Origin: Candidatus Micrarchaeota archaeon
Lineage (GTDB): Archaea; Micrarchaeota; Micrarchaeia; Micrarchaeales; CABMGC01
Length of the DNA: 58,292 nucleotides
Assembly: GCA_046536675.1 (NCBI GenBank)
Contig: JAWDMK010000002.1
Coordinates: forward strand, 1-58,292
Direction of reading: 5' to 3'
Shown: one piece after another, positions 7,440 through 46,971 of the stretch
Layout of the letters: each line of letters begins with the position of its first letter
Numbering within the stretch: position 1 is the stretch's first letter
Made by a program: the position numbers and the translations under genes
The notes under the pieces: generated by a model
What the model was told of the DNA's origin: nothing
Seen by the model: only the letters and a program-made list of their open reading frames with translations
Database searches by the model: none

Positions 7440-7493
7440 AAACGAGATAAGCATTAGGTATTTAATTTATTATTTTTCAATATAATTGATATC

Positions 7494-13402: not shown

Positions 13403-13409
13403 TGATGTT

Positions 13410-14558: not shown

Positions 14559-14614
14559 GTTTATGAGTTTCTTAGTATAGTTTATAACTTTATTTCTTTA
14601 ATATATTTTTATAA

Positions 14615-18446: not shown

Positions 18447-18459
18447 GAGTAGTGGTTAA

Positions 18460-19182: not shown

Positions 19183-19184
19183 GC

Positions 19185-19340: not shown

Positions 19341-19365
19341 TAGCTAGTATTATGGAAAGGATGTT

Positions 19366-29826: not shown

Positions 29827-29836
29827 AGGGCTTTAG

Positions 29837-31388: not shown

Positions 31389-32588
31389 ATGGCTGAGGAG
31401 ATAACAAAAACCAGTATAGATGCCCTGGTAGAGTACCTAAAGGCTCATGGTGAGACAGAGGCTTCTGTATTGGCTAAAGCTCTGGGTGTGAGCGAAACCC
31501 TTATAGAAGAGTGGTGCAACATACTGGAAAAATCAAACATTGTTAAGATAAGCTATAGAGCAGGAAAGATGTATGTAGCACCTCTTGCGATAACAAAAGA
31601 GGGCCTGACTGAGGTTCAGCACAAGATAGAGATCAAGAAGGAAAATATAATAAACGAGGCAACAGCAAAGCTAACAATGCTAAACCAGCTAAACGAAAAA
31701 GTTGAGAGTCTAAGTAAGTTTGTATCAGCAGGGAATGAGCTGCTTAAAAAGAAGATAGGACCGATGAAAGAAAGCCTGGATGAGCTATATAAGATAGCAA
31801 ATATTGCTGAAAAGAAATACAATGAAGTTAAAGAGAGGAAAAAAGAAATTGATAATATAGCTGAAAGGCTAAACAAAGAGATCAATGGGCTTAGAGAAAG
31901 GGCCCAAGCAATAGAGCATTTTCAACTGAATACAGCAAATGCTGAAAGGCTTATAGAAGACATGCATAGCAAGATGGAGCTGATGCGCAAGCTGCTTGAA
32001 GAAGAAGAAGCTAACAGGAAAAAGGCACTACAGCAACTTGAGGAAAGCGAAAAGAAGCTTGCAGAAGGGATAAGAGCTGAGATAAATGCAATAGATGATA
32101 TGATTTCTGCAAACGAAAAAGAATTAAACGAGAGTAAAATGAAGAGCAATGAGTATAAGAGAAGCGCACTTAAACTCGGAAAAGAGCTTGAGGAGCTAGG
32201 AAAGAAGGCTACAGATCAAGTCTCTAAGGACAGAGAAGAGATAGAGAGATATGTAAATATTATAGAAAAAAGCTATACTGATTTAAAATACAAGATAGAA
32301 GAGCTGAAAAAAGATATTGGAGATATTACTAAGATAGATGAACTTCTTAGAAACGCACAAAACACTATAGAAGAGGTAAACAAGGCAAAAGGTCCATTAA
32401 CAGAGGAGCTCAATAAAATAATAGAAGAGGCTAAGGCGATAGAGGCGCTTTCAAAAGAAGACATAGTTACAAGTACCAAGAAAACAGAAGAGCTTGATGA
32501 AAGAACGGAAAAAGTGAGCAAAGAGATAGATCAATTAGATAATAAGCTTTCAAAGGCTGATGAAGATATAGGAAATGCTATAAAGTGA
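31389..32588 (+). CDS. N-terminal wHTH plus ~300 aa coiled-coil protein, first gene of the pilus ATPase operon
   Basis: 399 aa. SIDALVEYLKAHGETEASVLAKALGVSETLIEEWCNILEKSNIVKI is wHTH-like. The remainder is Glu/Lys-rich with heptad repeats. Confidence 0.55.
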   Translation: MAEEITKTSIDALVEYLKAHGETEASVLAKALGVSETLIEEWCNILEKSNIVKISYRAGKMYVAPLAITKEGLTEVQHKIEIKKENIINEATAKLTMLNQLNEKVESLSKFVSAGNELLKKKIGPMKESLDELYKIANIAEKKYNEVKERKKEIDNIAERLNKEINGLRERAQAIEHFQLNTANAERLIEDMHSKMELMRKLLEEEEANRKKALQQLEESEKKLAEGIRAEINAIDDMISANEKELNESKMKSNEYKRSALKLGKELEELGKKATDQVSKDREEIERYVNIIEKSYTDLKYKIEELKKDIGDITKIDELLRNAQNTIEEVNKAKGPLTEELNKIIEEAKAIEALSKEDIVTSTKKTEELDERTEKVSKEIDQLDNKLSKADEDIGNAIK

Positions 32589-32592
32589 GCGT

Positions 32593-34095
32593 ATGGCTGA
32601 GGATGAGAAAGTTTATGATGCATATGAACTTGATGCACATGGGTTGAAGGTAAATGTAAGGATAGTTGATAAAGGAGACTTTGTACCAATTTATGAGGTG
32701 ACAATGCCGGGAATAGGCGAGGCTACAAAAATACTTCTTATCTCAGAAAGGCAAGAGCTTCTTTCGCTAGTACCAATAGATCCGACAAGAATAGAAGACA
32801 AAGAATACCTCGCTGAGCTAACAAATAAGTATATCGAAGCTTCTGATGTTATAATAGATAAATACCTGCCTGGTACAAGTAGCGAGGTAAAGAAGGCACT
32901 CACCGCTTATATAATCAATATTATGCTTGGACTCGGGGATTTAGAAGCACCACTCGCAGACGATAACCTAGAAGAAATTGCAGTAAACACATCAAAAGAG
33001 CCGGTCTGGGTATTTCATAAAAAGTATGGCTGGTGCAAAACAAATCTAATGCTACCTAATGAAGAAACAATCTATGACGATGCAGAGCAGATAGGAAGAA
33101 GGGTAGGCAGGCAGATAACAAACTTATCTCCACTTATGGATGCTGAACTCCCTGACGGTTCAAGAGTCAATGCAACACTTTATCCTATATCACAGAAGGG
33201 CAATACAATAACAATAAGAAAATTCGGAAAGAACCCTTGGACAATGCCTGCTCTTATTGCAAATGGCACTGTTTCTAGCTACCTAGCTGCGCTAACATGG
33301 CTTGGCATACAGAATGAGGTAAGCATGCTAATTTCTGGAGGAACAGCTAGCGGAAAGACAAGCTTTTTGAACGCAATGAGTATTTTTATGCCACCAAACA
33401 GAAGAATTGTATCTGTAGAAGAGACAAGAGAGCTTACCTTGCCTGAATTCTTACACTGGGTACCAATGGTTACAAGGCAGCCCAATCCAGAAGGTAAAGG
33501 AGAAGTAAAGCTATACGATTTGATGATAAATGCGCTAAGACAAAGACCAGATATAATGCTTGTTGGAGAAATTAGAACGAAGAGTGATGCTGAAACCCTT
33601 TTCGAGGCAATACACACAGGCCATGCTGTATATGGTACAGTACATGCTGATGATACACAAGACACTATAGTTAGAATGACCAACCCACCTATTGACATAC
33701 CAAAGCTTATGATTAATGCAATCGGAGGCATAGTAACCCTTTTCAGACACAGAAGGCTTGGCATAAGAAGAGTACTCGAATTTGCAGAGATAAACAGAAC
33801 AGGAGACGCAACAGTGCTGTGGAGATGGAATTCAAGACAAGATACTTTTGTGCAGATAGGAGAAATGGCAAGGCTTGCAGACACTATAATGCTTTATGGC
33901 GGCTACACAAGGAATGAAATGCTAGAAGAGATAGAAGAGAAGCGCAAGATATTAGAGTGGATGGTCAAAAACAGGGTTTTTGATGTAGATGCAACGGGCT
34001 ACATAATAGCAAACTATTACAAAGATAAGAGCAACATACTTGATATAGTGAACAAGGATATGCCTTACTCAAGTGAGATGTTTAAAAAGGTGTAA
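32593..34095 (+). CDS. type IV pilus/archaellum-family secretion ATPase (FlaI/ArlI / PilB / TadA-like)
   Basis: 500 aa. Walker A ISGGTASGKTSFLNA, Asp box VSVEETRE, Walker B RQRPDIMLVGEIR, His box HTGHAVYGTVHA. Confidence 0.9.
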   Translation: MAEDEKVYDAYELDAHGLKVNVRIVDKGDFVPIYEVTMPGIGEATKILLISERQELLSLVPIDPTRIEDKEYLAELTNKYIEASDVIIDKYLPGTSSEVKKALTAYIINIMLGLGDLEAPLADDNLEEIAVNTSKEPVWVFHKKYGWCKTNLMLPNEETIYDDAEQIGRRVGRQITNLSPLMDAELPDGSRVNATLYPISQKGNTITIRKFGKNPWTMPALIANGTVSSYLAALTWLGIQNEVSMLISGGTASGKTSFLNAMSIFMPPNRRIVSVEETRELTLPEFLHWVPMVTRQPNPEGKGEVKLYDLMINALRQRPDIMLVGEIRTKSDAETLFEAIHTGHAVYGTVHADDTQDTIVRMTNPPIDIPKLMINAIGGIVTLFRHRRLGIRRVLEFAEINRTGDATVLWRWNSRQDTFVQIGEMARLADTIMLYGGYTRNEMLEEIEEKRKILEWMVKNRVFDVDATGYIIANYYKDKSNILDIVNKDMPYSSEMFKKV

Positions 34096-34666
34096 GGATT
34101 TGGAATACTTAGAAGTAGATGATCCAAAGATTATAGAAGAAGTTGATAAATTGGGAAAAAATAATAGCGTTGTTGAGCTTGATTTAGATAAAGTTATTGC
34201 AAACAGGATTGAAATTAGGCAGTATAACTACGGCGAGGCTATTCAGAGTCTTGTTGGTGTAGAGGCAAAGGAGGAAAAGATAAAAGAACCCATAGAGAAA
34301 GAGGTAACAGCGCCCCAAGAAGGTATAGCGGTAGAAAAGGCAGCAAGTGAGATAAAGAATGTAATTGGATCAATCGGCAAGGAGTTCGAGAAAAATATAA
34401 AGAGGGAGACAGAGAGGATAAAGGGTGAAAAGCTGGTGCTACCTACTTTATCTTTGCAGGACCAGATAAGTGAGCTAGAAAAAATAAGTGAGGGCTTAGA
34501 CGAGCAGGTCTTTAGCGATGAACAGCTAAAGATAATAAAAGATGAGGTCTATGGATTAAGAGATAAGGTAAAGAGTGAAAAGATAAGCATAGCAGATGAA
34601 TTTCAGAAGTCTTTAATAGATCTGAGGAACCAAAAGATAAATGAGGTAATTAAAAAATTGAAGTAG
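34073..34666 (+). CDS. acidic coiled-coil protein, unknown function
   Basis: 197 aa, overlapping the ATPase 3' end. It is E/K-rich with no TM. The start is uncertain. Confidence 0.45.
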   Translation: MRCLKRCKDLEYLEVDDPKIIEEVDKLGKNNSVVELDLDKVIANRIEIRQYNYGEAIQSLVGVEAKEEKIKEPIEKEVTAPQEGIAVEKAASEIKNVIGSIGKEFEKNIKRETERIKGEKLVLPTLSLQDQISELEKISEGLDEQVFSDEQLKIIKDEVYGLRDKVKSEKISIADEFQKSLIDLRNQKINEVIKKLK

Positions 34667-34673
34667 CGGTTAT

Positions 34674-35654
34674 ATGTTCGGAAAGAAAAAGGATAATATA
34701 ACGGCGCAGCAACCTATCGGGTTTACTAAGCAAAAGAGGTTCTTGTTCTTTAAAATAAGGTCAAAGCCCATATATCAGACTCAGCCACAAACACAGCAAA
34801 CACAGCAGCAAGCAAAAATTTCAAAATTTCAAATGTACATTGCTAGCGTAGCTGCTAAGCATAAAGGACTTGACCTGGCATTGAGAGAAGCAGGCATAAG
34901 GGAAAGCACTTATGACTTTATCAAAAAGATGCTCATAAATTCAATAATTGTTAGTGCGATGCTCGTTGTGGCTATCTTCGTTTTGCTTATCCATTATTAT
35001 ATGAGCTATGCAACTAGTGCAATTTTATCTTTAGCACTTGGCATAGCAATATTTGAAGTCTTTTTCAATAAGTTCGTAAATTATCCTATAGACAAAAGCA
35101 GAAATGAGGGCAAAGAGATAGAGAAGAGTATACTTTTTGCAGCTAGAGACCTAGTTATAGGAATGAGATCAGGCATGCCTCTGTTTAATGCCTTGACAAC
35201 TGTGAGCACAGGTTATGGCGCGGCAAGCAGGGAGTTTGCAAAGATTGTAGAGCTGGTACAGCTTGGCATGCCGATAGAACAGGCAATCGATGAGGTAAGC
35301 AGTAAAAGCCAGTCAAAAACATTCAAGAACCTTATGCTGCAGGCATCTGTAAGTATTAAAGCTGGTGCAGATATAGTAGGAGCACTGCAAGGTGTAATCG
35401 ATGAAGTTATGCAAGAAAGAACAATAGAGCTTAGAAGATACGGGCAGAGGCTTAATGCACTTGCTATGTTTTACATGCTCTTTGGAGTCATATTCCCTAG
35501 TATGGGCATAGCGGTAGCAGCTATTCTAACAACGTTCATAAGTTTATTTACAATAGACGAATCAACGCTAATATTTACACTTGTGGGAATATTCTTTCTG
35601 CAGCTTATATTCCTCAATATTATGAGGTCTTCAAGACCAACATTTGCAATGTGA
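34674..35654 (+). CDS. pilus platform membrane protein, single T2SSF domain (TadB / FlaJ N-half like)
   Basis: 326 aa. It has a Q-rich N-terminal region. A T2SSF-like block (ARDLVIGMRSGMPLFNALTTVS...MPIEQAIDEV...ASVSIKAGADIVGAL) is flanked by TMs. Confidence 0.75.
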   Translation: MFGKKKDNITAQQPIGFTKQKRFLFFKIRSKPIYQTQPQTQQTQQQAKISKFQMYIASVAAKHKGLDLALREAGIRESTYDFIKKMLINSIIVSAMLVVAIFVLLIHYYMSYATSAILSLALGIAIFEVFFNKFVNYPIDKSRNEGKEIEKSILFAARDLVIGMRSGMPLFNALTTVSTGYGAASREFAKIVELVQLGMPIEQAIDEVSSKSQSKTFKNLMLQASVSIKAGADIVGALQGVIDEVMQERTIELRRYGQRLNALAMFYMLFGVIFPSMGIAVAAILTTFISLFTIDESTLIFTLVGIFFLQLIFLNIMRSSRPTFAM

Positions 35655-36645
35655 TCATATGATATCATTTGAGAAGCTTGTGGCAAGGAATGTTGTCGTA
35701 TTTATTTCTAGAGAGCTTGACCTTGCCGGGCTCAAGATGACTGTAAACAAATTCCTAGGAATTGCAATAGTTGGCGGCTTCCTTATTCTTATACTATTAT
35801 CTTACTCTCTCTTTTTCCTTAAGTTTAATGTAGGCATTGCAGCGCTTGGCGGCATTGGAGGTGCTGTGCTCTTTGAGGTAATGCTTTATATGCTCCTTGA
35901 ATTTAGCATAGAGAAAAGAAAGACATTCGTTGAATCAATACTTCCAGACTATTTGCAGATAGTCGCAGCAAACGTAAGAAGTGGAATATCACTCGATAAG
36001 GCCATGGTTCTTGCAGCAAGACCAGAGTTTAAATATTTCAGTGATGATGTTAAGCTTGTAAACAAGGCTCTCTATGCTGGATCAACATTACAAAGCACCC
36101 TCCTTGCACTTGCAGAAAAATATAGATCAATTCAATTAAAGCACACTGTAAGAATGCTTGTCGAAGCAATACAATACGGAGGCGGAATGACAGATTTGCT
36201 CAACCAAGTAGCAAAGGATATAAGAAATCAACAGATGATCCAGAAAGAGGTATCAGGCCAATTATTTATGTATACTATCTTTATTGCTTTTGCGGCTATA
36301 ATAGGTGCACCAACTCTTTATGCCCTTACCACAAAGATGATGACAGTAACAGATACAGTCTGGGCAGGCATATTAGCACAGAACCCTGGCGGCTTGCCAA
36401 CTGCAGGAGTATCTTTCTTAAGGCCTAGCCCACCTAAGATAACAATTGGCATGTATGAGAGCTTTGCGCTCACCGCTGTTATAATAATAACAGGTTTTGG
36501 TTCATTTATAGTATCCGCAATTTCTACAGGCTCTATAATAAGAGGGCTAAGATATCTGCCTATATTTATATTAGTTGGACTCGGCGTTTTCTATGTTGTT
36601 GGCGCAGTAATAGGAACAATGTTTGCGAGCATAAGCGGCATTTAG
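35644..36645 (+). CDS. pilus platform membrane protein, single T2SSF domain (TadC / FlaJ C-half like)
   Basis: 333 aa. LPDYLQIVAANVRSGISLDKAMVLAA...LVEAIQYGGGMTDLLNQVAKDIRNQQ is followed by TMs. It overlaps the previous gene by 11 nt. Confidence 0.75.
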   Translation: MQCDHMISFEKLVARNVVVFISRELDLAGLKMTVNKFLGIAIVGGFLILILLSYSLFFLKFNVGIAALGGIGGAVLFEVMLYMLLEFSIEKRKTFVESILPDYLQIVAANVRSGISLDKAMVLAARPEFKYFSDDVKLVNKALYAGSTLQSTLLALAEKYRSIQLKHTVRMLVEAIQYGGGMTDLLNQVAKDIRNQQMIQKEVSGQLFMYTIFIAFAAIIGAPTLYALTTKMMTVTDTVWAGILAQNPGGLPTAGVSFLRPSPPKITIGMYESFALTAVIIITGFGSFIVSAISTGSIIRGLRYLPIFILVGLGVFYVVGAVIGTMFASISGI

Positions 36646-39323
36646 CCAACAAGATTAAAAGCTTCCCTTTCATTTATTATACCTGTAATTGTAGACAAGC
36701 CATTATTAGGATAAGAACCATAGAAAGGAGTGTAGTAAACGTTATAAGCTGTGCCATTATTGCCTAAGCCACTATAGTCATTTGCATTGCCGTTTAATGG
36801 CCACCATGCAACAAGATTTGCAGTATATGGCAAGCCTGATACGCCTTCCTGATAAAGCTGCTGTATCTGGCTCGGCGAAAGAGCTGCATTATAGAGTTGG
36901 ACATTTGCTATCGAGCCGTTAAAGGCATTACTATCGCACTGCGCGAATTGAGTTCCTATTGTAGCCCCAGGCGAGCTAGTATATGTATTTCCATTTGTAT
37001 TCGCAGAGCTTACTCCATCTAGATACCAATAGTAATTAGGTGGATTTACGGAAACTGCTATGAAGTGCCATTTGTTATTAAATATAGAATAAGGTAGTAG
37101 TGCACCGCTGCTTGCATCTGCACTGGTACATCTATGCAACACAAGACAAGTATTTGGCAAACAGCTGTTTTGTATCCCGAATGCCTGATAGCTCTTTAAT
37201 GAAAAAGTTGCAGTAGTCCATGAGTGGCTAAAATCTTGAATGGAACTAGGCTTAATCCACATAGCCATTGTAAAGATAACATTTGTACCAGCAATCGGCT
37301 CTGAAGGAGCAAATATAACGCTGTTAGAGTTATATGGCCCACTAGACCACTGACCGTTAAACTGTGCTGTATAAAAGTTTGGGCCAACTTCAAGCGGCAA
37401 CCTGCTTATATATAGCGCAGAGTTGCAATTCTTGCCACTTATGCACGACAATGTGCCAGGAATAGGCAATGTATTAGGCGTAGGCACAATGTATATAGAA
37501 TCTCTTGTATAGTTTATTAAATTATTAAATTTCACATTAGTTGCAACGCCGTTGTTGCCATTACCACTGTAGTCATTTGCATTACTATTTAGAGGCCACC
37601 AGCCTACAAGACCCGCATTTGGCAATGGCAGACCTTCGATGCCTTCTTGATAAAGCTGCTGAATCTGACTCGGCGAAAGAGATTTATTATAAATTTGAAC
37701 GTTTGCTATAGAACCGTCAAAAAGGCAACTTGGGCTAGGCCAAGCACCTATCCATGAGGTAATAGGAGTTTGGATGGATATTTGTTTGTTACCGGACAAA
37801 GAACCTGTTGCACTATTATTGTTTTCATATACTGTCACTGTTGTTGCACCACTTGTATAAACAGCCGCAATGAACGTCCATGTATTGCGCGTTACTTGGA
37901 ATGGCGAAACGTAATCATTACCGCAGCTTGCGAAAGAAACATATCCATTTCCATTAAGTCCTAAACCAACGCCGTTTGCATTACAACCAGACGAGAAGTT
38001 ACCATATCCAAAAGTCATCTCCTGTCCGCAACCACTAGCCGTGTAGATCGGCACATTTACCCATGCAGTTATCGAAACAGTAGGAGAGCCAGTAGGTATG
38101 TTGTTCGTGCCTGTCTTGATGTAGCTGTTCTGCCCGTTGAACTGCGCTGCATAGCGGTTTGAACCTGAAAAAGTGAATATACCATTAGGTGAACTTCTTA
38201 GAAAGTTTGCGCTTGCCCTATCAATATAGGATGGCAAAAAAGGTGATGCAAAATATGAGCCATTCTGTATAGCGTTTCTAAGACCTTCTATATTTAGCAA
38301 GTCCATTCCAGGCCCGTAGAGAAGAACTTTTGTTCCGTTTGGAATGTAATTAAGTATATTTGTAGAACTAGAATACTGAAGCCAAGGAATGTTTGGTGGT
38401 GAGCTTATACTATTTATAGAATATGTAACTAAGCCGCCAAACTTATTTGCAATTGTGCAGGTTGCATTTGTAATTAAGTTTGCGTTTGGAGTAGCTAATA
38501 TAATTGATTTATTAAGCGGCGCTGTATTTGCCCAGGATGGAACATTACTTGATAAGCTTGTACATGTAACACCACTAGGTACATGTAATACAATACCATA
38601 TATGAAAGCATTGCTACTAGAATTGCCATATGTTGCATAAGCACCTCCTACAACACTTGTGAGATTATTTATTGAAGAAAACCTTATTGGTCTTTGCACG
38701 CCCTGTTGAGCATAGAAAAGATCATAAGTTCCATTAAGAGGTATAGAAGCAGATACTGGAATAGAGTAGTTTTGTATGCCAGATGGAGTTGCTATTGAAA
38801 CATTCTCTACATATGAAACAGAGAGATTATATGGGCTTGTTTGATATATTATTGGCTTAGACTCGCTTATCTTTACAGCTAGTGGAGAAGGCTTGATATT
38901 GTTGATTATAGAAGCATTATAAGCCTTAAATGTTGCATTACCCATCCACATTGCCAATGCATTTGCAGCTAATGAGTTTGGCGCTACATTCGGAAGCGTT
39001 CCGTTAACAATAAGGTAAGAAAGGTATTGGCTTAGATTGCCCACAAAATTTCCTTTCCTCATACTTGCATTATATTCATAGCTGGTTAGAGCAGATAAAG
39101 CTTTTGAAAGTGAAGCAGCTGCAAAGGCTTGCGAGGAAGAAATAAGTGAAGATGCATAATTTACAGATGATGAGACAAGCAATGAGCTCTGCTGTATTTT
39201 GTTATAGCTTATGTTTAGAAGAGTAAAAATAAGCAGTTCAGCGATCATGAGAGTAAAAAGAACCACTACCAATACTGTCATCAAGAATCCTTTCCTGCTT
39301 CTTTTTTTATTCATCATTGCCAT
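36642..39323 (-). CDS. giant prepilin-like adhesin with two Laminin_G_3 (LamG) domains and a truncated third
   Basis: 893 aa. The N-terminus is basic followed by Gly and a hydrophobic helix (KKRSRKG/FLMTVLVVVLFTLMIAELLIF). Two LamG ends read GSIANVQ(I/L)YN..LSPSQIQQLYQEG. The protein stops shortly after a third WWPLNGNANDYSGLGNNG domain start. Confidence 0.7.
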   Translation of the reverse strand: MAMMNKKRSRKGFLMTVLVVVLFTLMIAELLIFTLLNISYNKIQQSSLLVSSSVNYASSLISSSQAFAAASLSKALSALTSYEYNASMRKGNFVGNLSQYLSYLIVNGTLPNVAPNSLAANALAMWMGNATFKAYNASIINNIKPSPLAVKISESKPIIYQTSPYNLSVSYVENVSIATPSGIQNYSIPVSASIPLNGTYDLFYAQQGVQRPIRFSSINNLTSVVGGAYATYGNSSSNAFIYGIVLHVPSGVTCTSLSSNVPSWANTAPLNKSIILATPNANLITNATCTIANKFGGLVTYSINSISSPPNIPWLQYSSSTNILNYIPNGTKVLLYGPGMDLLNIEGLRNAIQNGSYFASPFLPSYIDRASANFLRSSPNGIFTFSGSNRYAAQFNGQNSYIKTGTNNIPTGSPTVSITAWVNVPIYTASGCGQEMTFGYGNFSSGCNANGVGLGLNGNGYVSFASCGNDYVSPFQVTRNTWTFIAAVYTSGATTVTVYENNNSATGSLSGNKQISIQTPITSWIGAWPSPSCLFDGSIANVQIYNKSLSPSQIQQLYQEGIEGLPLPNAGLVGWWPLNSNANDYSGNGNNGVATNVKFNNLINYTRDSIYIVPTPNTLPIPGTLSCISGKNCNSALYISRLPLEVGPNFYTAQFNGQWSSGPYNSNSVIFAPSEPIAGTNVIFTMAMWIKPSSIQDFSHSWTTATFSLKSYQAFGIQNSCLPNTCLVLHRCTSADASSGALLPYSIFNNKWHFIAVSVNPPNYYWYLDGVSSANTNGNTYTSSPGATIGTQFAQCDSNAFNGSIANVQLYNAALSPSQIQQLYQEGVSGLPYTANLVAWWPLNGNANDYSGLGNNGTAYNVYYTPFYGSYPNNGLSTITGIINEREAFNLVG
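36752..36918 (-). repeat. LamG linker DNA module, copy 5 (3' end of the 893 aa gene)
   Basis: Encodes GSIANVQLYNAALSPSQIQQLYQEGVSGLPYTANLVAWWPLNGNANDYSGLGNNGT. Confidence 0.8.
37546..37715 (-). repeat. LamG linker DNA module, copy 4 (in the 893 aa gene)
   Basis: Encodes GSIANVQIYNKSLSPSQIQQLYQEGIEGLPLPNAGLVGWWPLNSNANDYSGNGNNGV. Confidence 0.8.
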
Positions 39324-41470: not shown

Positions 41471-41997
41471 TACTCAACACCAAATGATGTGTTAGTCCAA
41501 ACCATAACCTGCATCGTTGCTGGCATGCCGTTTATTATTATAGGCTTATTTACAACATAAATACTCATAGCATGTGCTGCATATGGACTTAGCCCAATTC
41601 CAAAATTTATTTTCTGATAATTTATCACAATATAGTAATCATAGCCAACACCAACAGCTTGCTTTGTTGCTTGATAATTTAAGTTTGCCATACTCTGCAA
41701 TGTAGCGACCTTCTCGAGCGAAACTTCACCATTGCTTCCTAGTAGACCAATAGATATATTTGACCAAGTGCTTGGATTGCTAGGGTTTACAATCGAGCTC
41801 CATGAACTTGGTGATCCCGGCGATAACAACCTATTGGCAAGGGCTTGGGCCTGCATTTGCATAGAGCCAACACCATAACCATATGAAAGTGCGAACTGAT
41901 TGTTTATACTATACCATACAAATGCAAGTATGGTTATTGCAAATCCAAATATTACCATTGCAAATATAATGTCAAATGACCAAAACTGTAGCCTCAT
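41470..41997 (-). CDS. minor prepilin-like protein
   Basis: 175 aa. N-terminus MRLQFWSFDIIFAMVIFGFAITILAF follows the Q-x-S-x-(E/D)-hydrophobic pattern. It has a 4 nt overlap with the upstream gene and a 1 nt overlap with the downstream gene. Confidence 0.6.
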   Translation of the reverse strand: MRLQFWSFDIIFAMVIFGFAITILAFVWYSINNQFALSYGYGVGSMQMQAQALANRLLSPGSPSSWSSIVNPSNPSTWSNISIGLLGSNGEVSLEKVATLQSMANLNYQATKQAVGVGYDYYIVINYQKINFGIGLSPYAAHAMSIYVVNKPIIINGMPATMQVMVWTNTSFGVE

Positions 41998-44900
41998 GGC
42001 AAAACACCCATACTAACTTCTGTACTTGCATATGCTGGATATATGTTATTATACAGTTCATTTATCTGCTGTGGCGTAAGCGCTTTATTATAAATTTGAA
42101 GGTTCGCTATAGAGCCATTTAAGCCTTGGAAAGCTTGGCCACCAAGATAGCCGACATTAAAACCTATTCCGAGATAATGAGCAGCAGAACAATTTTCTTC
42201 TTGAAAACTAAGAGATTGGTTCTGAGTTCCAACATAAAACGTGGCGGTTCCTGTGTTTATGCCACCATTTTTAAGAGTAAGTGCAACAAATGTCCATTTT
42301 CTTAGGGGAACAACCAGGTTTGAGGCTGTGTAGACCCAATTGTTTGTGGTTTTAGCATTCCATGCGGCAGCAAATAGATTTCCACCAGTAGTTACACCAA
42401 ATTGAAAGTCAACTAGAGGATTACCCTCGGTGTAAATGAATGGGGAGCCTGCATATGAATTCAAATAGACCATAGCAACAATTGTATAGTTGGGCTGAAG
42501 GTTAAGTGGTGCATATGATGCATTGTAGATATAGCTATTTCCATTGAAGTTAATTCCATAGCTTCCGAAAGAATAAAGATAAGATGGCTTTACTATCTGT
42601 TGCTGTGTATATATAACGTTTGCCGGCACGCCATTGTTGCCATTGCCACTATAGTCGTTTGCATTGCCATCAAGTGGATACCATGCAACTAAGCCTGTAG
42701 AATTTGGTAAGCCCGTAACACCGGCATTATAAAGCTGCGTAATTTGAGATAAAGACAATGCCCTTGAATAAACCTGAACATTTGCTATCTTACCAAAAAA
42801 TTGATTTCCGCCTATAGGGTAAGCAGTCGTTAGACCTATTTGAAGATTGCCTGGCGTAGCATGCCCTAAAAGCGTACCCACATTCTTTGACCAAACAAGC
42901 TTTCCATTCAGATATACATTATAAGCAGAGCCATTGTATGTTGCACCGACAAAGTTCCATGTATTAAGTGGAAAATATGAATTTATGCCGAGCCACCCAC
43001 CCGTGTTATAGCCGTTTATCATTATCTGCGTAGACCCGCCAGTTGCAACCTCTATTGCGCCGGAATCTCCAGCACTCGTAGCAATAACCCTGCTATAACT
43101 CTCAGCAGATGTAGGATATATCCAAGCAAAATAGGAAAAGCTTGTGTAATTTATAGGATTTATTGTAGGCACATTGATGTAGGCTGCAGAACTTGTAGAA
43201 CCCGTAGGATTGAAAGTTGCAAATGTTACATTTGAATAATTTCCGCTCTCCGTGATTGGATTATTTTTAAGAAAATTAAGATTACCATATAATGCCCCGT
43301 TGTTGCCATTGCCGCTATAGTCGTTTGCATCACCATCAAGAGGATACCATGCAACAAGACCTGCATTAGGAATTGGCAAGCCTGCAATGCCTTCTTGGTA
43401 AAGCTGCCTTACTTGGCCAACATTAAGTGAATTTGAATAAAGCTGTACGTTGGCAATAGAGCCGTTAAAATATGCTATGTTGTTACTCCACGTACCAGCA
43501 CCTATGCTCCAGTTTGAAGGTGTGCATGTTTGCGGTGTCAGAGAGGCTGTTGCAATCATTACACCATCTAGAAAGAGGGTTTGCTGTGATGTTGTTTGAT
43601 TTATAACTACAAAATGCCATTTGTTATCTGCGACAAAGTAATTTGTTGAAAATGCAAGGGAGCCTGTAGAAGAAGAATCACCACCAGCAAGATAACCCTG
43701 AGGCGTTACATAAATTACTGGTGAATAGCAGCTGGCTATGCTTGGCGGCAGTTTGTTGCCGTTCCATAATACAACGCCGCCACTTGCAGTCTTAAACCAA
43801 GCTGCAACACTCAATATAGAATTAGCGCTAGGCGATGCTTGAGGTAGATTAATATAAGAGGAATTTGTGTTGAATGTTGCATAGTAGCTAGGCATATCCC
43901 AGAAGGAATTTTTCATGAAGCCATTTATGTTTGAGTTTGAGCTATATGCTATACCACCAACGCCAAGGTTTAGAGGCCACCATGCAATAATGCTATTTGC
44001 TACAGTATAATTGCCGTTGTATGCTGTAGCCTTTACAAAAGCTTTTCCAGGCACGTTGTTAAAATTAAGAAAAGATGTAGCGACACCATTTTTGTTTGTG
44101 AAGTTTGATTGAGGAACCATAGGACCGTAGGAAGATGCAAAGCTTACCAGTGTGTTTGAAAGCGGCTTGCCGTTTCCATTAAGCACTTTTGCAAAGAACT
44201 GAGATACACTAGTAAACAAAATTGGGCCATTTGTTACACCGTTGTTGCCATTGCCGCTATAATCGTTTGCATTGCCGTTTAATGGCCACCAGCCGACAAG
44301 GCCTGCATTAGGAATTGGCAAGCCGGCTATGCCTTCTTGGTAAAGCTGCTGAATCTGATTTGCTGAAAGAGATGAATTATAAAGTTGTGCATTAGCAACT
44401 TTTCCATTGAAGTAACTGCCAGTATTTGATCTGCTCGCTATATATGCATAGTTTCCATTTCCCTGAAGCGCAAGATTGCCACTTACTCCAGTACTTGCTA
44501 CTTGTACGCCGTTTATCCACAAACTAAGCGAAGAGCCATTATATCTGCTTACTAAAAAGTACCATTTGCCAGGAGTAATAGAATTTGCCTGACTTTTTGC
44601 CTCTGGCCAACAGCTGCTTGTTGTGCAGACCCATGTTTCAGCTTCATTTGTACCACTATCATTAAATGCTATTATAGGGTTTATTTCGTATCCTGGAGCC
44701 GAATCTGCGCCTAAAATTTCTTGTCTGCTCCCGCAGCAACTTCCAACAATGTGCTGACCTGAATTCCAATACGCCCAAACAGCCATTGTTGCTTGAGTGC
44801 CAGTAAGCAACGGATGTGATGACTTGATAGTGACATTTGCACCTGCGCCATTGAACTGCGCTGCATAAACGTTCTGGCTTGAAAGTGATATATACTCTGC

Positions 44901-45368
44901 TTGATTGCTCTGCGTAGCACATTGATAATCTATGCAAACCTTGCCGAATGAGTTCTGCAAATATATTGTGCCGTTTGCAACTGGTATTAGATACTGGTTT
45001 GAAGTGCCACTTACCAAATAGCTTGGATTTGAAACGACATTTTTTGCCATGCTGTATGCTATAGCTTTGATAATCTGCTTTCCCACCTTAGCCTGTAATA
45101 TTACCATTCCATTCTTTGTTATCGTTACATTGTATGGTATTAAGCCTATGAGGTTTGTAACAGCTAAACTGCCAGTATAGCCGTTACCAGCTTGCAAAGC
45201 AGAATCCATTGCACTTGCTATGCTCTGTGCTTGGAGCTGAAGCTGGGTAAATGTCTGGTCGCTTAGCCCAAGGCTTCTTTCGCTAGAGATCAATGCAAAC
45301 ATGAAGATAAAGACAAGTAGCACAAAAGAGAATACAATAAGAAATTCAAGCGAAAGCTGAAGCTTCAT
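41994..45368 (-). CDS. giant prepilin-like adhesin with four Laminin_G_3 (LamG) domains and an Ig-like spacer
   Basis: 1124 aa. Class III signal MKLQLSLEFLIVFSFVLLVF (QxSxEF type). There are four domain ends of the form G(S/K)(I/V)AN(V/A/L)Q(L/V/I)Y...L...Q(I/V)..LY. Three are followed by GL(V)(A/G)W(W/Y)PL(N/D)G(N/D)ANDYSGNGNNG starts. Confidence 0.75.
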   Translation of the reverse strand: MKLQLSLEFLIVFSFVLLVFIFMFALISSERSLGLSDQTFTQLQLQAQSIASAMDSALQAGNGYTGSLAVTNLIGLIPYNVTITKNGMVILQAKVGKQIIKAIAYSMAKNVVSNPSYLVSGTSNQYLIPVANGTIYLQNSFGKVCIDYQCATQSNQAEYISLSSQNVYAAQFNGAGANVTIKSSHPLLTGTQATMAVWAYWNSGQHIVGSCCGSRQEILGADSAPGYEINPIIAFNDSGTNEAETWVCTTSSCWPEAKSQANSITPGKWYFLVSRYNGSSLSLWINGVQVASTGVSGNLALQGNGNYAYIASRSNTGSYFNGKVANAQLYNSSLSANQIQQLYQEGIAGLPIPNAGLVGWWPLNGNANDYSGNGNNGVTNGPILFTSVSQFFAKVLNGNGKPLSNTLVSFASSYGPMVPQSNFTNKNGVATSFLNFNNVPGKAFVKATAYNGNYTVANSIIAWWPLNLGVGGIAYSSNSNINGFMKNSFWDMPSYYATFNTNSSYINLPQASPSANSILSVAAWFKTASGGVVLWNGNKLPPSIASCYSPVIYVTPQGYLAGGDSSSTGSLAFSTNYFVADNKWHFVVINQTTSQQTLFLDGVMIATASLTPQTCTPSNWSIGAGTWSNNIAYFNGSIANVQLYSNSLNVGQVRQLYQEGIAGLPIPNAGLVAWYPLDGDANDYSGNGNNGALYGNLNFLKNNPITESGNYSNVTFATFNPTGSTSSAAYINVPTINPINYTSFSYFAWIYPTSAESYSRVIATSAGDSGAIEVATGGSTQIMINGYNTGGWLGINSYFPLNTWNFVGATYNGSAYNVYLNGKLVWSKNVGTLLGHATPGNLQIGLTTAYPIGGNQFFGKIANVQVYSRALSLSQITQLYNAGVTGLPNSTGLVAWYPLDGNANDYSGNGNNGVPANVIYTQQQIVKPSYLYSFGSYGINFNGNSYIYNASYAPLNLQPNYTIVAMVYLNSYAGSPFIYTEGNPLVDFQFGVTTGGNLFAAAWNAKTTNNWVYTASNLVVPLRKWTFVALTLKNGGINTGTATFYVGTQNQSLSFQEENCSAAHYLGIGFNVGYLGGQAFQGLNGSIANLQIYNKALTPQQINELYNNIYPAYASTEVSMGVLP
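42627..42795 (-). repeat. LamG linker DNA module, copy 3
   Basis: Encodes GKIANVQVYSRALSLSQITQLYNAGVTGLPNSTGLVAWYPLDGNANDYSGNGNNGV. Confidence 0.8.
43294..43466 (-). repeat. LamG linker DNA module, copy 2
   Basis: Encodes GSIANVQLYSNSLNVGQVRQLYQEGIAGLPIPNAGLVAWYPLDGDANDYSGNGNNGA. Confidence 0.8.
44236..44406 (-). repeat. LamG-end/linker/LamG-start DNA module, copy 1
   Basis: Encodes GKVANAQLYNSSLSANQIQQLYQEGIAGLPIPNAGLVGWWPLNGNANDYSGNGNNGV. It shares long identical DNA runs with the other copies, for example GCCTTCTTGGTAAAGCTGC. Confidence 0.8.
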
Positions 45369-45385
45369 TCAAACACTTAACATAA

Positions 45386-45841
45386 TCATGTTAATGGTGT
45401 TATATAAACGCAAGGCATATTAGGTGATGTGGGGCATGAGCCCAAAGCTGTTATATTTACAAGGTATGTACCTGTAGCACTTATACCACCAAGGTTGCCG
45501 CTCACATTTACAGGCGTATATGCGGTTACAGAACTATAGCCAGTGGATGATCTCACCATGAATATAATCAGATGACCTGGTGCACCGCTCTGTGAGCCAA
45601 CATAAATGTATTGAACTCCTGGTGGCACCTGGATTTGTATAACTTGTTTTGCTGGCGGGCCTTCACTTCCAACAAATGATGCAACACTTGCAATTTTAGA
45701 AGCGGCTTGCTGTGACTCTATTGCTGAGAGCGATGAGCTTGAGCTTGCTATCTGCATAAACGCTATGACAACTATTGGGAGCAAAACAGCTAAGCCAAAC
45801 GAAAGGGTTATTAGGAGCTCAAAGCTTGATTGCGCTTTCAT
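45386..45841 (-). CDS. small prepilin (candidate major pilin), class III signal peptide
   Basis: 151 aa. MKAQSSFELLITLSFGLAVLLPIVVIAF matches the archaeal K/R-(G/A)-Q-x-S-x-E-(F/L) prepilin pattern. It is the first pilin of the operon. Confidence 0.7.
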   Translation of the reverse strand: MKAQSSFELLITLSFGLAVLLPIVVIAFMQIASSSSSLSAIESQQAASKIASVASFVGSEGPPAKQVIQIQVPPGVQYIYVGSQSGAPGHLIIFMVRSSTGYSSVTAYTPVNVSGNLGGISATGTYLVNITALGSCPTSPNMPCVYITPLT

Positions 45842-46971
45842 GTGATCACTATATTGTTACCTTTGAACTTGGTAACAACAAGCTCCTTCTTCTCCTTTAC
45901 TTCATTGTATAGTTTTTCAACCAGATCTTTTAATACACTGCTTAATGAATAACCTGTGGAAAGTGCCGCGACAGAGCCACCTTTCTTTAATACAACTTTG
46001 CCATGAATCTCATAATTTCTTAGCTTCGATCTTTTTACATTCACTGTGACATAATCTACTTTTATCTTGCTAAACCTGTTTATCTTATTTACCATATCAT
46101 TAAGCTCTGCCTTGATGTCTTCCTCATACTCCTTTGTATAATCATCTAAGCCAGAGATTATTATCTTGTTTTCTTCTTCAGTTGTAGTAGATGCTATAAG
46201 CCCAAAAATATCCCTTACCGTTATAATGCCTACAGGCTTATCAGATTTAGTAACAATAAGTGATGATATGTTTCGCTCAACAAACTCCCTTATCACTTCC
46301 TCTAGTGGGCTATCTTGCTCTATTGCAAGTATACTCTTTTGGCATACGCTGCCCACCGGAGTATTACTCAATGTATAGAAATAGTCTCTTCTTTGTGGAG
46401 ATCTCTCGGTAGCTTTTGCAAACATTTCTACTATGTCTTTAAATGATATAATACCATATAGAGAGCCATTCTTCATCACAACAAGCCTATTTACCTTGTT
46501 TTTCTCCATCGCCGCTTTAGCCTGCGCTATGTTTGCATCAGCATCTATGCCTATAACTGGTGAGGTCATCGCATTCTCAACACTATATTTTGAGAGAAGA
46601 TGCAGCGAGAGAATAGCCTTAAGTATCTCATTCCTCTTAACTATACCTATAATCTTATTTCCCTCTGTGTAAGGAAGTGCCTTCACCCCTTCATAGTAAA
46701 AGTATAGTATAGCCTTTTCTATTGTTGTAGATCTGTCAAGAAGGGGCACTTTCTTTGCAAACTTACCTATCGACTGCTTTTTATGAAGCTTAAGTCCACC
46801 CTTCCTTACAATGGTTCTGTCATCTACTATACCATAATAATCATTATTTTTATTAACGATGACAGCTGTATACTCTTTGACCTTACTTATCGCCTGTGTT
46901 ATAGGGTCCTTGTAATCATAGAATACAGTTTGAGAAACAAACTCACTTGGTATAGGTTCTATCGCCCTCAT
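45838..46971 (-). CDS. four CBS domains fused to a C-terminal HPF/RaiA (ribosome-associated inhibitor, S30AE)-like domain
   Basis: 377 aa. Four CBS-like units are visible by eye. The C-terminal ~95 aa (IIISGLDDYTKEYEEDIKAELNDMVNKINRFSKIKVDYVTVNVKRSK..YEIHGKVVLKKGGSVAALSTGYSLSSVLKDLVEKLYNEVKEKK) follows the beta-alpha-beta-beta-beta-alpha pattern of YfiA/HPF. Its stop overlaps the pilin ATG (ATGA). Confidence 0.55.
   Translation of the reverse strand: MRAIEPIPSEFVSQTVFYDYKDPITQAISKVKEYTAVIVNKNNDYYGIVDDRTIVRKGGLKLHKKQSIGKFAKKVPLLDRSTTIEKAILYFYYEGVKALPYTEGNKIIGIVKRNEILKAILSLHLLSKYSVENAMTSPVIGIDADANIAQAKAAMEKNKVNRLVVMKNGSLYGIISFKDIVEMFAKATERSPQRRDYFYTLSNTPVGSVCQKSILAIEQDSPLEEVIREFVERNISSLIVTKSDKPVGIITVRDIFGLIASTTTEEENKIIISGLDDYTKEYEEDIKAELNDMVNKINRFSKIKVDYVTVNVKRSKLRNYEIHGKVVLKKGGSVAALSTGYSLSSVLKDLVEKLYNEVKEKKELVVTKFKGNNIVIT

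Follow-up and report, generated by a model that had tools for sequence, protein, structure and literature searches.

The window analysed here is a stretch of 58,292 nucleotides from a Candidatus Micrarchaeota contig, and its source organism is a Micrarchaeon (DPANN). Positions 31389–46971 hold a convergent locus, with pilus machinery on the plus strand and a CBS gene plus five pilin-type genes on the minus strand (Table 1). The locus probably (at roughly 0.7) represents an Epd-like type IV pilus system, i.e. clade 1 of Makarova or 'system 1', with exchangeable LamG tip adhesins. This kind of system is already known, and the locus matches the clade 1/'system 1' Epd-like archaeal pili; one new result is the replacement of LamG modules between close strains. 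Re-reading of the open reading frames and translations bore out all positions and N-termini of an earlier note on this DNA, as well as its view of a convergent type IV pilus locus, in that one T2SSE and two single-T2SSF domains are encoded opposite the five pilin-type genes. The reading frames it listed are correct, but it missed the 377-aa CBS protein in the same interval.

Table 1. Features of the Micrarchaeal pilus locus; a slash marks the putative prepilin cleavage site
Feature	Coordinates	Strand	Description
399-aa cytoplasmic HTH/coiled-coil protein	31389..32588	+	weak N-terminal winged-HTH, long coiled coil
500-aa PilB/FlaI/CpaF-family secretion ATPase, assembly motor	32593..34095	+	PF00437 T2SSE, E 5e-33
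197-aa acidic protein, accessory gene between ATPase and platform genes	34073..34666	+	conserved, syntenic
326-aa TadB/TadC-like platform protein	34674..35654	+	single T2SSF, PF00482, E 1e-15, aa 157-281
333-aa second TadC-like platform protein	35644..36645	+	single T2SSF, PF00482, E 1.1e-15, aa 104-228
893-aa modular pilin	36642..39323	-	longer leader ..KKRSRKG/FLMTVL; lineage-specific 350-aa N-domain; two LamG
718-aa modular pilin	39314..41470	-	MKG/VIFTLD; BamB/PQQ-like beta-propeller aa ~106-395; one LamG
175-aa small minor pilin	41470..41997	-	MRL/QFWSFD...; N-terminus conserved in 43 orthologues
1124-aa modular pilin	41994..45368	-	MKL/QLSLEF; pilin head aa ~60-150, LamG1, Ig-like, LamG2-4
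Hypervariable cassette, LamG1 core of 1124-aa pilin, aa ~175-327	44388..44847	-	replaced in closest strains
151-aa pilin, most conserved pilin	45386..45841	-	N-terminus MKA/QSSFELL...
377-aa protein, first gene of pilin operon	45838..46971	-	four CBS, PF00571, E 7e-36

The plus-strand genes are a type IV pilus/type IV filament (TFF) assembly set, consisting of an ATPase and a split platform. Against NCBIfam models the ATPase scores 256 bits for FlaI (cut-off 550) and 173 bits for TadA; its best PDB matches are A. fulgidus GspE (2OAP, 1e-67), FlaI (6e-60) and CpaF (6e-46), and it is 64–71% identical across Micrarchaeota. The 333-aa platform protein is 55–71% identical across the phylum, and the stop codons of its gene and of the 893-aa pilin gene overlap convergently. 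The acidic protein (pI 5.07; 188 aa from a later start, as called on related contigs) has no match in Pfam or NCBIfam and is syntenic in relatives at 31–35% identity. The 399-aa protein appears to have an accessory or regulatory role in this locus. It had been described as a winged-HTH protein with a coiled coil; an SMC-like coiled coil is indeed found, together with a Csa3-HTH match (E 4e-5), but the winged-HTH is indicated by sub-threshold matches only (HTH_11, TrmB, HTH_34 and MarR, residues 12–64). A protein with 23–27% identity to it is also encoded upstream of the ATPase in loci L050, L052, L069, L084 and L085.

The minus-strand genes are tightly packed, with operon junctions of -4, +17, -4, -1 and -10 nt. 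The CBS gene shares 4 nt at its stop with the first pilin gene and so belongs to the pilin operon; it precedes the 151-aa pilin gene in 80 of 80 loci. An AT-rich stretch with TATA-like elements is found just upstream of it, and its product is likely to be a nucleotide-sensing regulator. The 151-aa pilin is a candidate for the major or core subunit. Its 295 homologues are all annotated 'hypothetical' and named Micrarchaeota, and the alignment shows a variable leader of 3–17 aa, then invariant QSS.ELL.T...G.A.L.P.V..AF.Q and two invariant Cys. The AF2 model predicts a helix (2–60) and six strands at low confidence (pLDDT 62); Foldseek with this model found no pilin match, which counts against the pilus reading. 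The 175-aa pilin aligns with the N-terminus of the 718-aa family (hhalign probability 93%, E 2.6e-7).

The gene order CBS, 151-, 1124-, 175-, 718- and 893-aa pilins, two T2SSF genes, acidic protein, ATPase and HTH/coiled-coil protein is kept in most of 80 Micrarchaeota loci, counted as the full order or whatever portion fits on the contig. A short variant among these loci has neither the 718- nor the 893-aa pilin gene. In three genomes (L056, L063 and L067) the CBS and 151-aa pilin genes adjoin a HerA-like ATPase cluster and not the giant pilins, and this also counts against the preferred reading. Median identity among orthologues is 68% for the ATPase, 63% for the 151-aa pilin and 33–37% for the giant pilins.

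The proposal that the five minus-strand products have class III N-termini is supported by comparative analysis, where all five behave as prepilins. In each family a variable basic leader (3–17 aa) is followed by a conserved site, [KR][GALS] before Q, V or F, and then by a hydrophobic helix of ~22 residues; position +1 is an invariant Q with E at +5 or D at +6, or V/I with D at +6. This combination of variable leader, conserved site and hydrophobic helix is the class III hallmark. Five such N-termini exceed chance, since the genes are consecutive and overlapping and each motif is conserved in 27–81 orthologues. The five products are probably cleaved as prepilins.

Model searches count against the preferred reading. 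PF04021 (Class_IIIsignal) matches none of the five N-termini in the window even at E<=10, and both PF04021 and TIGR02537 stay below threshold on every window sequence. Orthologues of the locus pilins, including those of the 1124-aa pilin, give sub-threshold PF04021 and TadF matches in register, and one orthologue of the 1124-aa pilin (P0234) has the JGI label 'UPF0333 family'. The FlaFind rule, in the form [KRDE][GA][ALIFQMVED][ILMVTAS]x3, is passed by the 893-aa protein and failed by the other four. The -1 residue is a non-canonical Leu in two of the five window pilins, and across the families it is often Leu or Ser, not Gly or Ala, a further point against the preferred reading. The low model scores and the FlaFind outcome would suit adhesins exported by Sec or anchored in the membrane at the N-terminus, or proteins associated with the S-layer, i.e. 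giants with signal anchors encoded beside pilus genes. Sec export of LamG proteins is usually assumed in DPANN papers (PMC9563170), and a peptidase is absent nearby: as had been stated, Peptidase_A24 is absent from the directly scanned ORFs of the window, and it is also absent from the Pfam lists of near-identical contigs, which account for most other larger ORFs. The related Micrarchaeon Mia14 has a single FlaK-like peptidase, MIA14_0570, elsewhere in its genome (PMC5498576). Simple signal anchors are nevertheless very unlikely. Conservation in the five families begins exactly after [KR]-x, the preceding leader varies in sequence as well as length, profile-profile comparison relates the families through the N-terminal helix only, and an AxA-type site after the hydrophobic segment is absent. 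In addition, the five genes show translational coupling and are conserved opposite the type IV pilus machinery phylum-wide.

The three giants were correctly described as proteins of 718–1124 aa with one to four Laminin_G_3 domains: HMM searches find four in the 1124-aa pilin (E 9e-65, with a weak Big_1), two in the 893-aa pilin (E 9e-30) and one in the 718-aa pilin (E 1e-25). A search for PQQ-like repeats finds a PQQ_2/BamB-type propeller in the 718-aa pilin (E 1e-16), where residues 106–395 match BamB and designed propellers in the PDB. The N-termini are conserved in 67, 31 (mostly K[GA] before Q) and 35 orthologues of the 1124-, 893- and 718-aa pilins, respectively. AF2 models of the 151- and 1124-aa pilins predict an N-terminal helix of ~60 residues followed by a beta head (helix 2–60, pLDDT 76.7 for the latter), and Foldseek relates the 1124-aa pilin to neurexin and laminin LG arrays. 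The LamG arrays resemble neurexin, laminin, pentraxin and sialidase-lectin folds. The N-domain of the 893-aa pilin is represented by 184 clusters in 1.84e9 proteins; full-length members have 850–1400 aa, and the domain is N-terminal in ~97% of the matches listed. The composition of the pilin-type products is extracellular and acid-stable: they are rich in S/T/N, charged residues make up 5–7% in the five products vs. 25–39% in the soluble cytoplasmic proteins of the locus, and the giants have 2–2.5 N-glycosylation sequons per 100 aa. LamG domains are able to bind proteins besides glycans, which counts against a glycan reading. The earlier note called such pilins unusual, but this overstates their novelty, as LamG-like adhesins and lectin pilins have been published (PMC4858521, PMC5498576, PMC9934059).

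The closest known system is clade 1/'system 1' (Epd of Methanococcus maripaludis; Makarova, Koonin & Albers, 2016; Sivabalasarma & Albers, 2026, preprint). The clade 1 model has two TadC proteins and large LamG-like DUF2341 adhesins (PMC4858521), and 'system 1' pili occur in DPANN (preprint 10.64898/2026.04.22.720090). The Micrarchaeota locus resembles it in having a single secretion ATPase and a platform divided over two TadC-like genes, and in encoding no fewer than five class III proteins. Gln is again found at +1, two pilins start in a QxSxEF-like way, and jelly-rolls of the LamG-like (DUF2341-type) kind occur in large proteins proposed to be tip adhesins. Unlike in clade 1, the pilin moieties of the Micrarchaeota locus are joined directly to Laminin_G_3 arrays of up to four domains and, in one case, to a BamB-like propeller; the locus often has Leu at -1, and has CBS and HTH/coiled-coil proteins as fixed members. 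It also differs from Epd in lacking an EppA-type peptidase, a FleN/MinD ATPase and a major pilin of ~70 aa devoid of a globular domain; the clade 1 assignment thus depends on the split platform and on the literature on a relative. This relative, 'Ca. Mancarchaeum acidiphilum' Mia14, is also a Micrarchaeon; its locus MIA14_0170-0177 (Golyshina et al., 2017) likewise runs from an ATPase gene through one that is not listed to a pair of TadC genes, and this gene order suggests that the two loci are orthologous. LamG-like genes are expanded in Mia14 and linked to type IV pilus loci (PMC5498576); the paper differs in that its table gives a single 'secreted component' for the locus and the term pilin is not applied to the LamG proteins.

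Perhaps the locus instead builds a short cell-proximal assembly, a pseudopilus rather than a long pilus, where LamG and propeller proteins form a surface layer for adhesion or for glycan/polysaccharide capture. In the Sulfolobus bindosome (Bas), a type IV pilus-like ATPase and platform assemble binding proteins that bear class III signals, and archaeal TFF machineries of this sort are proposed to be widespread (preprint). The BasE model aligns with the full-length ATPase (E 1e-41, aa 5–477), three of the five pilins are bulky, and an Epd-type small major pilin is absent. Yet the BasE score is 143 bits, far below the cut-off of 1000 and exceeded by FlaI and TadA, and the ABC solute-binding domains of Bas substrates are found in none of the proteins. 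The 151-aa pilin is small and highly conserved, with a typical pilin architecture suited to a filament, and ARMAN cells have been described as linked to Thermoplasmatales by pili-like connections (cited in PMC5498576). A bindosome-like display is rather unlikely.

Bacterial systems offer parallels to a pilus with tip adhesins. The Streptococcus sanguinis minor pilins PilB and PilC likewise have a class III signal, a short pilin moiety and grafted modules (Raynaud, 2021; Shahin, 2023), and form a tip-located complex presenting adhesive modules; the ConA-like lectin pilin PilC has been solved and located at the pilus tip (PMC9934059), and its glycan binding is shown. They are bacterial, unrelated in sequence and carry one lectin module per pilin, whereas here three predicted modular pilins have one to four LamG each, and one has a propeller. 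Cassette-like module replacement is not described in the literature for PilC. The PilY1/PilC adhesin of bacterial type IVa pili, to which archaeal DUF2341 proteins have been likened, is also large, tip-associated, equipped with a beta-propeller and presented by minor pilins. It differs in not being a pilin, in having no class III signal and in its propeller, a distinct fold of seven blades; the propeller protein of the Micrarchaeota locus begins with a pilin helix, and its sequence matches BamB/PQQ-type propellers.

In the proposed Epd-like mechanism, a class III signal peptidase, assumed to be encoded elsewhere in the genome, would first process the prepilins. The ATPase and the two TadC-like proteins would then extract them from the membrane and polymerise them, assisted by the HTH/coiled-coil and acidic proteins. 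The operon would supply the CBS regulator, the 151-aa core or major pilin, the small minor pilin and the three modular pilins, whose N-terminal pilin moieties would bear LamG jelly-rolls, an Ig-like domain or a beta-propeller. At 77–120 kDa such modules are too bulky to pack along a filament, and therefore the giants are most likely in a tip-located (priming) complex, by analogy with the S. sanguinis PilABC complex. There they may serve as adhesins that bind a partner's glycosylated surface multivalently; the partner is plausibly the episymbiont's host cell.

In strains 92–97% identical in DNA, whole LamG modules are replaced. The LamG1 cassette of the 1124-aa pilin has 13–33% amino acid identity to its counterparts in L015, L007, L010 and L011, with flanks 93–100% identical; its best matches are at the LamG2 position of 893-type pilins (L046, 69%; L032, 65%). 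In L015 both LamG1 (37602–38125) and LamG2 of the 893-aa pilin are replaced. The same module types occur in other pilin genes and positions in other genomes, and breakpoints fall at conserved boundary repeats, those of the LamG1 cassette coinciding with repeats D5 (44848–44884) and D1-D3 (44231–44411). This suggests recombination: LamG modules may be exchanged as cassettes at conserved module-boundary sequences, which would diversify binding specificity while machinery and pilin moieties stay conserved.

Strain-level replacement is the expectation for a partner-specific recognition surface. It argues against a pilus mainly for DNA uptake, biofilm-matrix binding or twitching, with extracellular polymer or protein as LamG ligands; so do the lectin-type fold matches, which point to carbohydrate- or receptor-binding modules, and none of the pilins shows a DNA-binding domain. 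Pilus-mediated DNA import has been proposed for DPANN (PMC7414124, PMC5498576), LamG ligands are varied, and biofilm growth is important for Micrarchaeota cultivation (PMC8975820), but such a function is scarcely probable. In culture, Micrarchaeota occur as partners of Thermoplasmatales (PMC5498576, PMC8975820). A role of the Epd-like pilus in attachment to a host or partner fits the Micrarchaeon lifestyle and the fast evolution of the LamG pilins, and the swapped lectin-like modules are good candidates for the parts that recognise the host cell.

The locus at 31389–46971 consists of two operons, one for pilus machinery and one for pilins, which converge and whose stop codons overlap at 36642–36645. 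ORF listing and translation reproduce exactly the gene positions and N-termini of the earlier note; its observation of the locus is confirmed and its interpretation supported. The five minus-strand pilin-type proteins are named here by their length in amino acids (p151, p1124, p175, p718 and p893). A 377-aa gene encoding CBS domains was absent from that description. It shares 4 nt with the first pilin gene, and the junctions between successive pilin genes are +17, −4, −1 and −10 nt; the CBS gene and the five pilin genes are therefore regarded as one operon.

Among solved structures, the ATPase is nearest to A. fulgidus GspE, FlaI and CpaF (PDB, 1e-67 to 6e-46). The PilC/TadC-type platform is present as two genes with one PF00482 domain apiece. 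A PDB sequence search for the identity of the HTH/coiled-coil protein was uninformative. Pfam and NCBIfam bear out the LamG (Laminin_G_3 lectin-like) domains claimed for the three giant proteins, i.e. four in p1124, two in p893 and one in p718, and the p718 propeller is also matched by PDB BamB and designed propellers. Directly upstream of the machinery operon are three successive TrkA_N (RCK) genes, two with N-terminal membrane segments, which near-identical contigs carry too. Rfam also detects a third tRNA that ARAGORN does not report; it may have an intron or a long variable arm.

Features of the locus and of other regions of the window mentioned in the text
Feature	Position	Strand	Basis or domain content
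Membrane protein	14615-15436	+	HerA-type cluster
Membrane protein	15436-16260	+	HerA-type cluster
VirB4/CedB-like ATPase	16244-17767	+	HerA/DUF87 and TraG-P-loop
240-aa protein	18460-19182	+	HerA-type cluster
777-aa protein	19366-21699	+	HerA-type cluster; no Pfam hit; class-III-like N-terminus MKA/SRILIISIAIILIIAAF
Three TrkA_N (RCK) genes	29407-31341	+	
HTH/coiled-coil protein, 399 aa	31389-32588	+	ORF translation
PilB/FlaI/CpaF-family secretion ATPase, 500 aa	32593-34095	+	PF00437 T2SSE, E 5e-33
Acidic protein, 197 aa	34073-34666	+	ORF translation
Platform protein (T2SSF-a), 326 aa	34674-35654	+	one T2SSF domain (PF00482), E 1e-15
Platform protein (T2SSF-b), 333 aa	35644-36645	+	one T2SSF domain (PF00482), E 1e-15
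p893, 893 aa, N-terminus ..KKRSRKGFLMTVL	36642-39323	-	Laminin_G_3 x2
p718, 718 aa, MKGVIFTLDAL	39314-41470	-	PQQ_2/BamB-type propeller and one Laminin_G_3
p175, 175 aa, MRLQFWSFDI	41470-41997	-	ORF translation
p1124, 1124 aa, MKLQLSLEFL	41994-45368	-	Laminin_G_3 x4
p151, 151 aa, MKAQSSFELL	45386-45841	-	ORF translation
CBS protein, 377 aa	45838-46971	-	four CBS domains
Archaeosortase/exosortase-like membrane protein, 506 aa	48192-49712	+	PF09721, 7.6e-16
tRNA, 86 nt	50739-50824	+	Rfam, 54.9 bits

A search of the window N-termini with PF04021, proposed in the earlier note, gave no match even at E ≤ 10, and TIGR02537 matched no window sequence at E ≤ 0.01. The class III nature of the N-termini is supported by comparative evidence, as a variable leader is followed by a conserved site in five families. 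The leader in the p151 alignment is basic and varies in sequence and in length (3 to 17 residues); Q4, S5, S6, E8, L9 and L10, together with other positions along the helix, are invariant. With a slash at the presumed cleavage site, orthologues of p1124 (n = 67) show [KR][LAGSIMN]/Q[IL][AS]LE[FY], those of p175 (n = 43) MK[AL]/QFWSFD, those of p718 (n = 35) MK[GA]/[VI].FT[LM]D, and those of p893 (n = 31) a longer leader and then K[GA]/[QF][LF]M[TS]. Unusually, Leu or Ser often occupies position −1, besides Gly or Ala. The N-termini of two p1124 orthologues (L070 and L044, with the initial Met added) score 16.8 and 19.0 bits with PF04021, in register (gathering score 23.7), and one of these also touches the TadF pilin model. 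Another p1124 orthologue carries the JGI label ‘UPF0333 family’, a name used for Methanocaldococcus class III proteins.

Profile–profile comparison of the N-terminal moieties shows a likeness restricted to the first 25–58 residues (alpha1), with probabilities of 93% for p175 vs p718, 63% for p151 vs p1124 and 49% for p1124 vs p175. A likeness limited to the N-terminal helix is the typical relation among pilins. Structure prediction of the N-helix and its attached domains, which had also been suggested, gives AF2 models with a helix at residues 2–60 and a beta-sheet head, both in p151 (pLDDT 62) and over p1124 residues 1–150 (block pLDDT 69–86; whole model 76.7). Foldseek comparison of the weak p151 model (pLDDT 62) with the PDB returned nothing below E 0.03.

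Charged residues make up 5–7% of the five pilins, vs 25–39% of the soluble cytoplasmic proteins of the locus, and the giant pilins contain 2–2.5 N-glycosylation sequons per 100 residues. Such a composition would be in keeping with secretion by an acidophile. Both p151 (C136, C144; 45386–45841) and the p1124 head (C145, C150; 44874–45368, minus strand) have an invariant Cys pair close to where the pilin moiety ends, which recalls the disulphide-bonded loop in type IV pilins of bacteria. No other LamG modules or ‘EYLMTYGWA’-type pilins were found in the window. The 777-aa protein, with its class-III-like start, could be another pilin-like surface protein.

Plain Sec export of the giant proteins is the reading that DPANN genome papers would suggest: LamG proteins are usually treated there as generic Sec-exported ‘adhesion’ proteins, and pilins are often unannotated (PMC9563170). 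Given the conserved site in all five families, it is very improbable here.

As the earlier note stated, no A24 prepilin peptidase was found in the window, where most ORFs of at least 110 aa were scanned directly and most of the remainder were covered by precomputed Pfam lists from near-identical contigs. The cultured Micrarchaeon Mia14 has one A24 prepilin peptidase, MIA14_0570, situated away from its pilus loci (Golyshina et al., PMC5498576). At the level of the lineage, this speaks against the second refuting condition of the earlier note, a genome that encodes no such enzyme. To judge from the N-termini, the implied enzyme would have to accept Leu or Ser at −1.

The locus has a secretion ATPase, a T2SSF platform and subunits with a predicted class III signal, i.e. 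the components by which a type IV filament is recognized. A platform split into two TadC-like genes adjoining the ATPase is a hallmark of clade 1 or system 1 pili (PMC4858521; preprint 10.64898/2026.04.22.720090), and the platform in the window is split in this way. The likeness to clade 1 of Makarova, Koonin and Albers extends to Gln+1/QxSxEF-like starts, at least five class III proteins and large LamG-like proteins. In the clade 1 model, two large DUF2341 proteins sit at the pilus tip, a placement that follows from a comparison with PilY1 (PMC4858521), and an orthologue of the window proteins, P0224, also carries PF10102. The name ‘system 1’ is that of the preprint of Sivabalasarma and Albers (2026), which lists DPANN among the carriers and also reports two platform genes in some DPANN loci of subsystem 4A (10.64898/2026.04.22.720090). 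In Mia14, a locus with an ATPase, one unlisted gene and two TadC genes was assigned by its authors to the Methanococci/Thermococci group, and LamG-like genes are expanded and partly linked to pilus loci (PMC5498576).

Neither EppA, a FleN/MinD ATPase nor a small Epd-type major pilin was found in the 58-kb window. EppA and FleN/MinD are frequent, not universal, in clade 1 loci, and major pilins are usually stand-alone genes (PMC4858521). Because these three are absent and the ATPase is only tentatively assigned to the arCOG01819 branch, by way of the annotation given in Mia14 to a locus whose gene order matches, the system is filed as Epd-like by architecture and not as a proven member.

Other archaeal surface systems were considered and rejected. 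The FlaI score is 255.7 bits vs a cut-off of 550 for the archaellum, and FlaH, FlaF, FlaG and Arch_flagellin give no match above noise. For Tat-fimbriae (TafC), the match is limited to the LamG part, at 23–70 bits vs a cut-off of 410, and the N-termini are class-III-like, not twin-arginine. The system type is already known; its archaeal, phylum-wide, multi-LamG and propeller modular pilins are a new variety.

Homologues of p151 number 295, all ‘hypothetical’, and the named ones are from Candidatus Micrarchaeota, Micrarchaeales or Micrarchaeaceae. When species-representative genomes were scanned, 80 loci were found, nearly all in Micrarchaeota MAGs, the closest being JAWDMB010000001.1. By BLASTP synteny, a recurring order is found phylum-wide: an archaeosortase-like gene on the opposite strand, CBS, p151, a p1124-like gene, p175, p718 and p893, and then, convergently, T2SSF-b, T2SSF-a, the acidic protein, the ATPase and the HTH/coiled-coil protein. 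At seven loci the arrangement is shorter, p718 and p893 being absent. The archaeosortase-like gene is divergent from and adjoins the CBS–pilin operon in about half of the 80 loci; no PGF-CTERM-like tail was found in any of the five pilins.

Median identities to the window proteins, with the six closest loci left out, are 68% for the ATPase, 56–61% for the platform proteins, 63% for p151, 48% for p175 and 43% for the CBS protein; for p893, p1124 and p718 they are 37, 33 and 33%, respectively. These values indicate that the machinery and the small pilin are constrained and the giant proteins fast-evolving. Clusters of distant p893 N-domain relatives carry no protein names.

The small pilin is also linked to a second cluster. 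In L056 (11601–18969), L063 (5171–12401) and L067 (3272–10473), genes homologous to window 14615–21699 directly follow the CBS–p151 pair in the same orientation and stand in place of the giant pilins; the HerA/VirB4-like ATPase there is 72–73% identical to its window homologue. As the HerA-like cluster replaces the giant pilins in three genomes, p151 is linked to two different clusters. In the window, eleven successive plus-strand ORFs without Pfam hit (4424–17767, with 3438–4349), several with N-terminal hydrophobic helices, come after a MoxR AAA_3 ATPase and end with the HerA-type ATPase. From its gene content, the region 3438–17767 may be a second membrane or secretion machine.

The Pfam architecture reveals a modular-pilin layout, in which a pilin moiety and independent grafted modules share one polypeptide. 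The AF2 model of p1124 has, in order, a helix, a beta head, a LamG, an Ig-like domain and three further LamG modules. Foldseek relates this model to neurexin, laminin LG, pentraxin, sialidase lectin domains and botulinum Hc, which at the level of the predicted fold supports the LamG assignment. The best-characterized functional parallel is S. sanguinis PilC, which has a pilin moiety, an Ig-like module and a ConA-like lectin and binds glycans; it is modelled in a tip-located PilABC complex because its bulky modules fit nowhere else (PMC9934059). In the window proteins, lectin activity and tip location are putative.

The most probable reading, at roughly 0.7, is a type IV pilus with a tip or priming complex of p175 and the three modular pilins. 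The candidate core or major subunit would be p151, and through the tip complex a lectin array that is multivalent and differs between strains would be displayed to a partner surface. In culture, Micrarchaeota live on members of the Thermoplasmatales (PMC5498576; PMC8975820), which have no paracrystalline S-layer according to a 2025 paper. Krause et al. (2022), on Ca. Micrarchaeum harzensis, mention neither pili nor LamG. The weak points of the pilus reading are the lack of a prepilin peptidase gene in the window, the non-canonical −1 residue, the candidate status of p151 as major pilin and the occurrence of CBS–p151 with the HerA-like cluster. Its main rival is a bindosome-like display without a long filament. 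A bindosome (Bas) proper was rejected, with a BasE score of 143 bits vs a cut-off of 1000, and Pfam finds no solute-binding-protein domains in the locus proteins; the rival is considered unlikely.

LamG modules are replaced between close strains, and this cassette replacement is a new and well-supported observation. The exact ATPase is on seven contigs and the exact p151 on ten, many of the latter contigs ending inside giant genes. The exact 1124-aa product is not on record in a sequence look-up, because its LamG1 cassette is strain-specific. When the operon is aligned to the 97%-identical contigs L007, L008, L010 and L011 and to the closest genome, L015 (92%), the DNA alignment breaks over window 44388–44847 in every one, and in L015 a second time over 37602–38125. 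Protein identity falls to 13–33% at p1124 residues ~175–327 (LamG1), with flanks at 93–100%, and p893 LamG1 and LamG2 are 6–40% identical to those of L015.

The breakpoints lie on, or within a few bases of, direct-repeat families at the module borders. D5 encodes YAAQFNG at the module start (copies at 44848–44884, 38134–38170 and 37354–37390); D1–D3 encode NGSIANVQLYN..QIQQLYQEGI.GLP at the module end. A recent tandem duplication as source of these intragenic repeats was rejected, the copies being 62–83% identical and matching conserved LamG boundaries. Recombination at the conserved module borders would be the cause of the replacement.

Modules also resemble those of other pilin genes. LamG1 of p1124 matches the second LamG of a p893-type pilin in L046 (69% identity) and L032 (65%); p893 LamG2 shares 72% identity with LamG1 of a p1124-type pilin in L018 and L017; and p893 LamG1 matches the LamG of a p718-type pilin in L032 (51%) and L029 (48%). 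The two modules of p893 in L015 share 88% identity with one another. Across the 80 loci, 339 LamG-profile domain matches (at least 90 aa) form 227 clusters at 50% identity, 181 of them singletons; among the 46 clusters with two or more members, 14 include matches from different genes or positions. The 33 members of the largest cluster are partial matches over the conserved junction/Ig region and not LamG modules. The pilin moieties, Ig-like domain, propeller and p893 N-domain are inherited in place.

Short ORFs of the p1124-LamG1 type are found away from the pilus locus too. The 184-aa protein P0393 is 86% identical to it, is truncated at both module borders and is present on three contigs (L096–L098). 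In the sister genome JAWDMB010000001.1 (L095, 9789–10869), a LamG gene fragmented into three ORFs is 75% identical, and its product starts with MEYLMTYGWAILII, a class-III-like helix. These stand-alone ORFs may be pseudogenes or donor cassettes. Adjoining the L095 fragments (7098–9683, minus strand) is an 861-aa protein in which a ~27-residue unit, ..NTNTPPEVLKQLAEDED.EVR.AVAE.., is repeated about 30 times in tandem; the unit resembles HEAT or LRV-type repeats.

Perhaps, and this is put forward only tentatively, the three modular pilins make up a combinatorial, recombination-varied host-recognition array, whose LamG modules are swapped between pilin genes and with stand-alone ‘silent’ donor ORFs. 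Modules bounded by two conserved DNA repeat families would be exchanged, with the truncated LamG ORFs elsewhere as donors. Such an array would be a functional analogue of Neisseria pilE/pilS variation, but one that swaps whole lectin domains at the pilus tip.

The genomic evidence bears on the means by which DPANN episymbionts locate and attach to their hosts. It recasts the LamG and propeller proteins of Micrarchaeota as predicted subunits of a type IV pilus conserved across the phylum. The concept of modular pilins, drawn from Gram-positive bacteria, would thereby take in archaea as well, where the multi-lectin pilins are much larger. Lectin-like modules that turn over between near-identical strains are candidate host-range determinants, i.e. 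which module meets which host glycan, and cassette replacement thus names testable host-recognition candidates for a DPANN lineage. If the array reading is true, a DPANN symbiont could retarget its pilus to new host surfaces.
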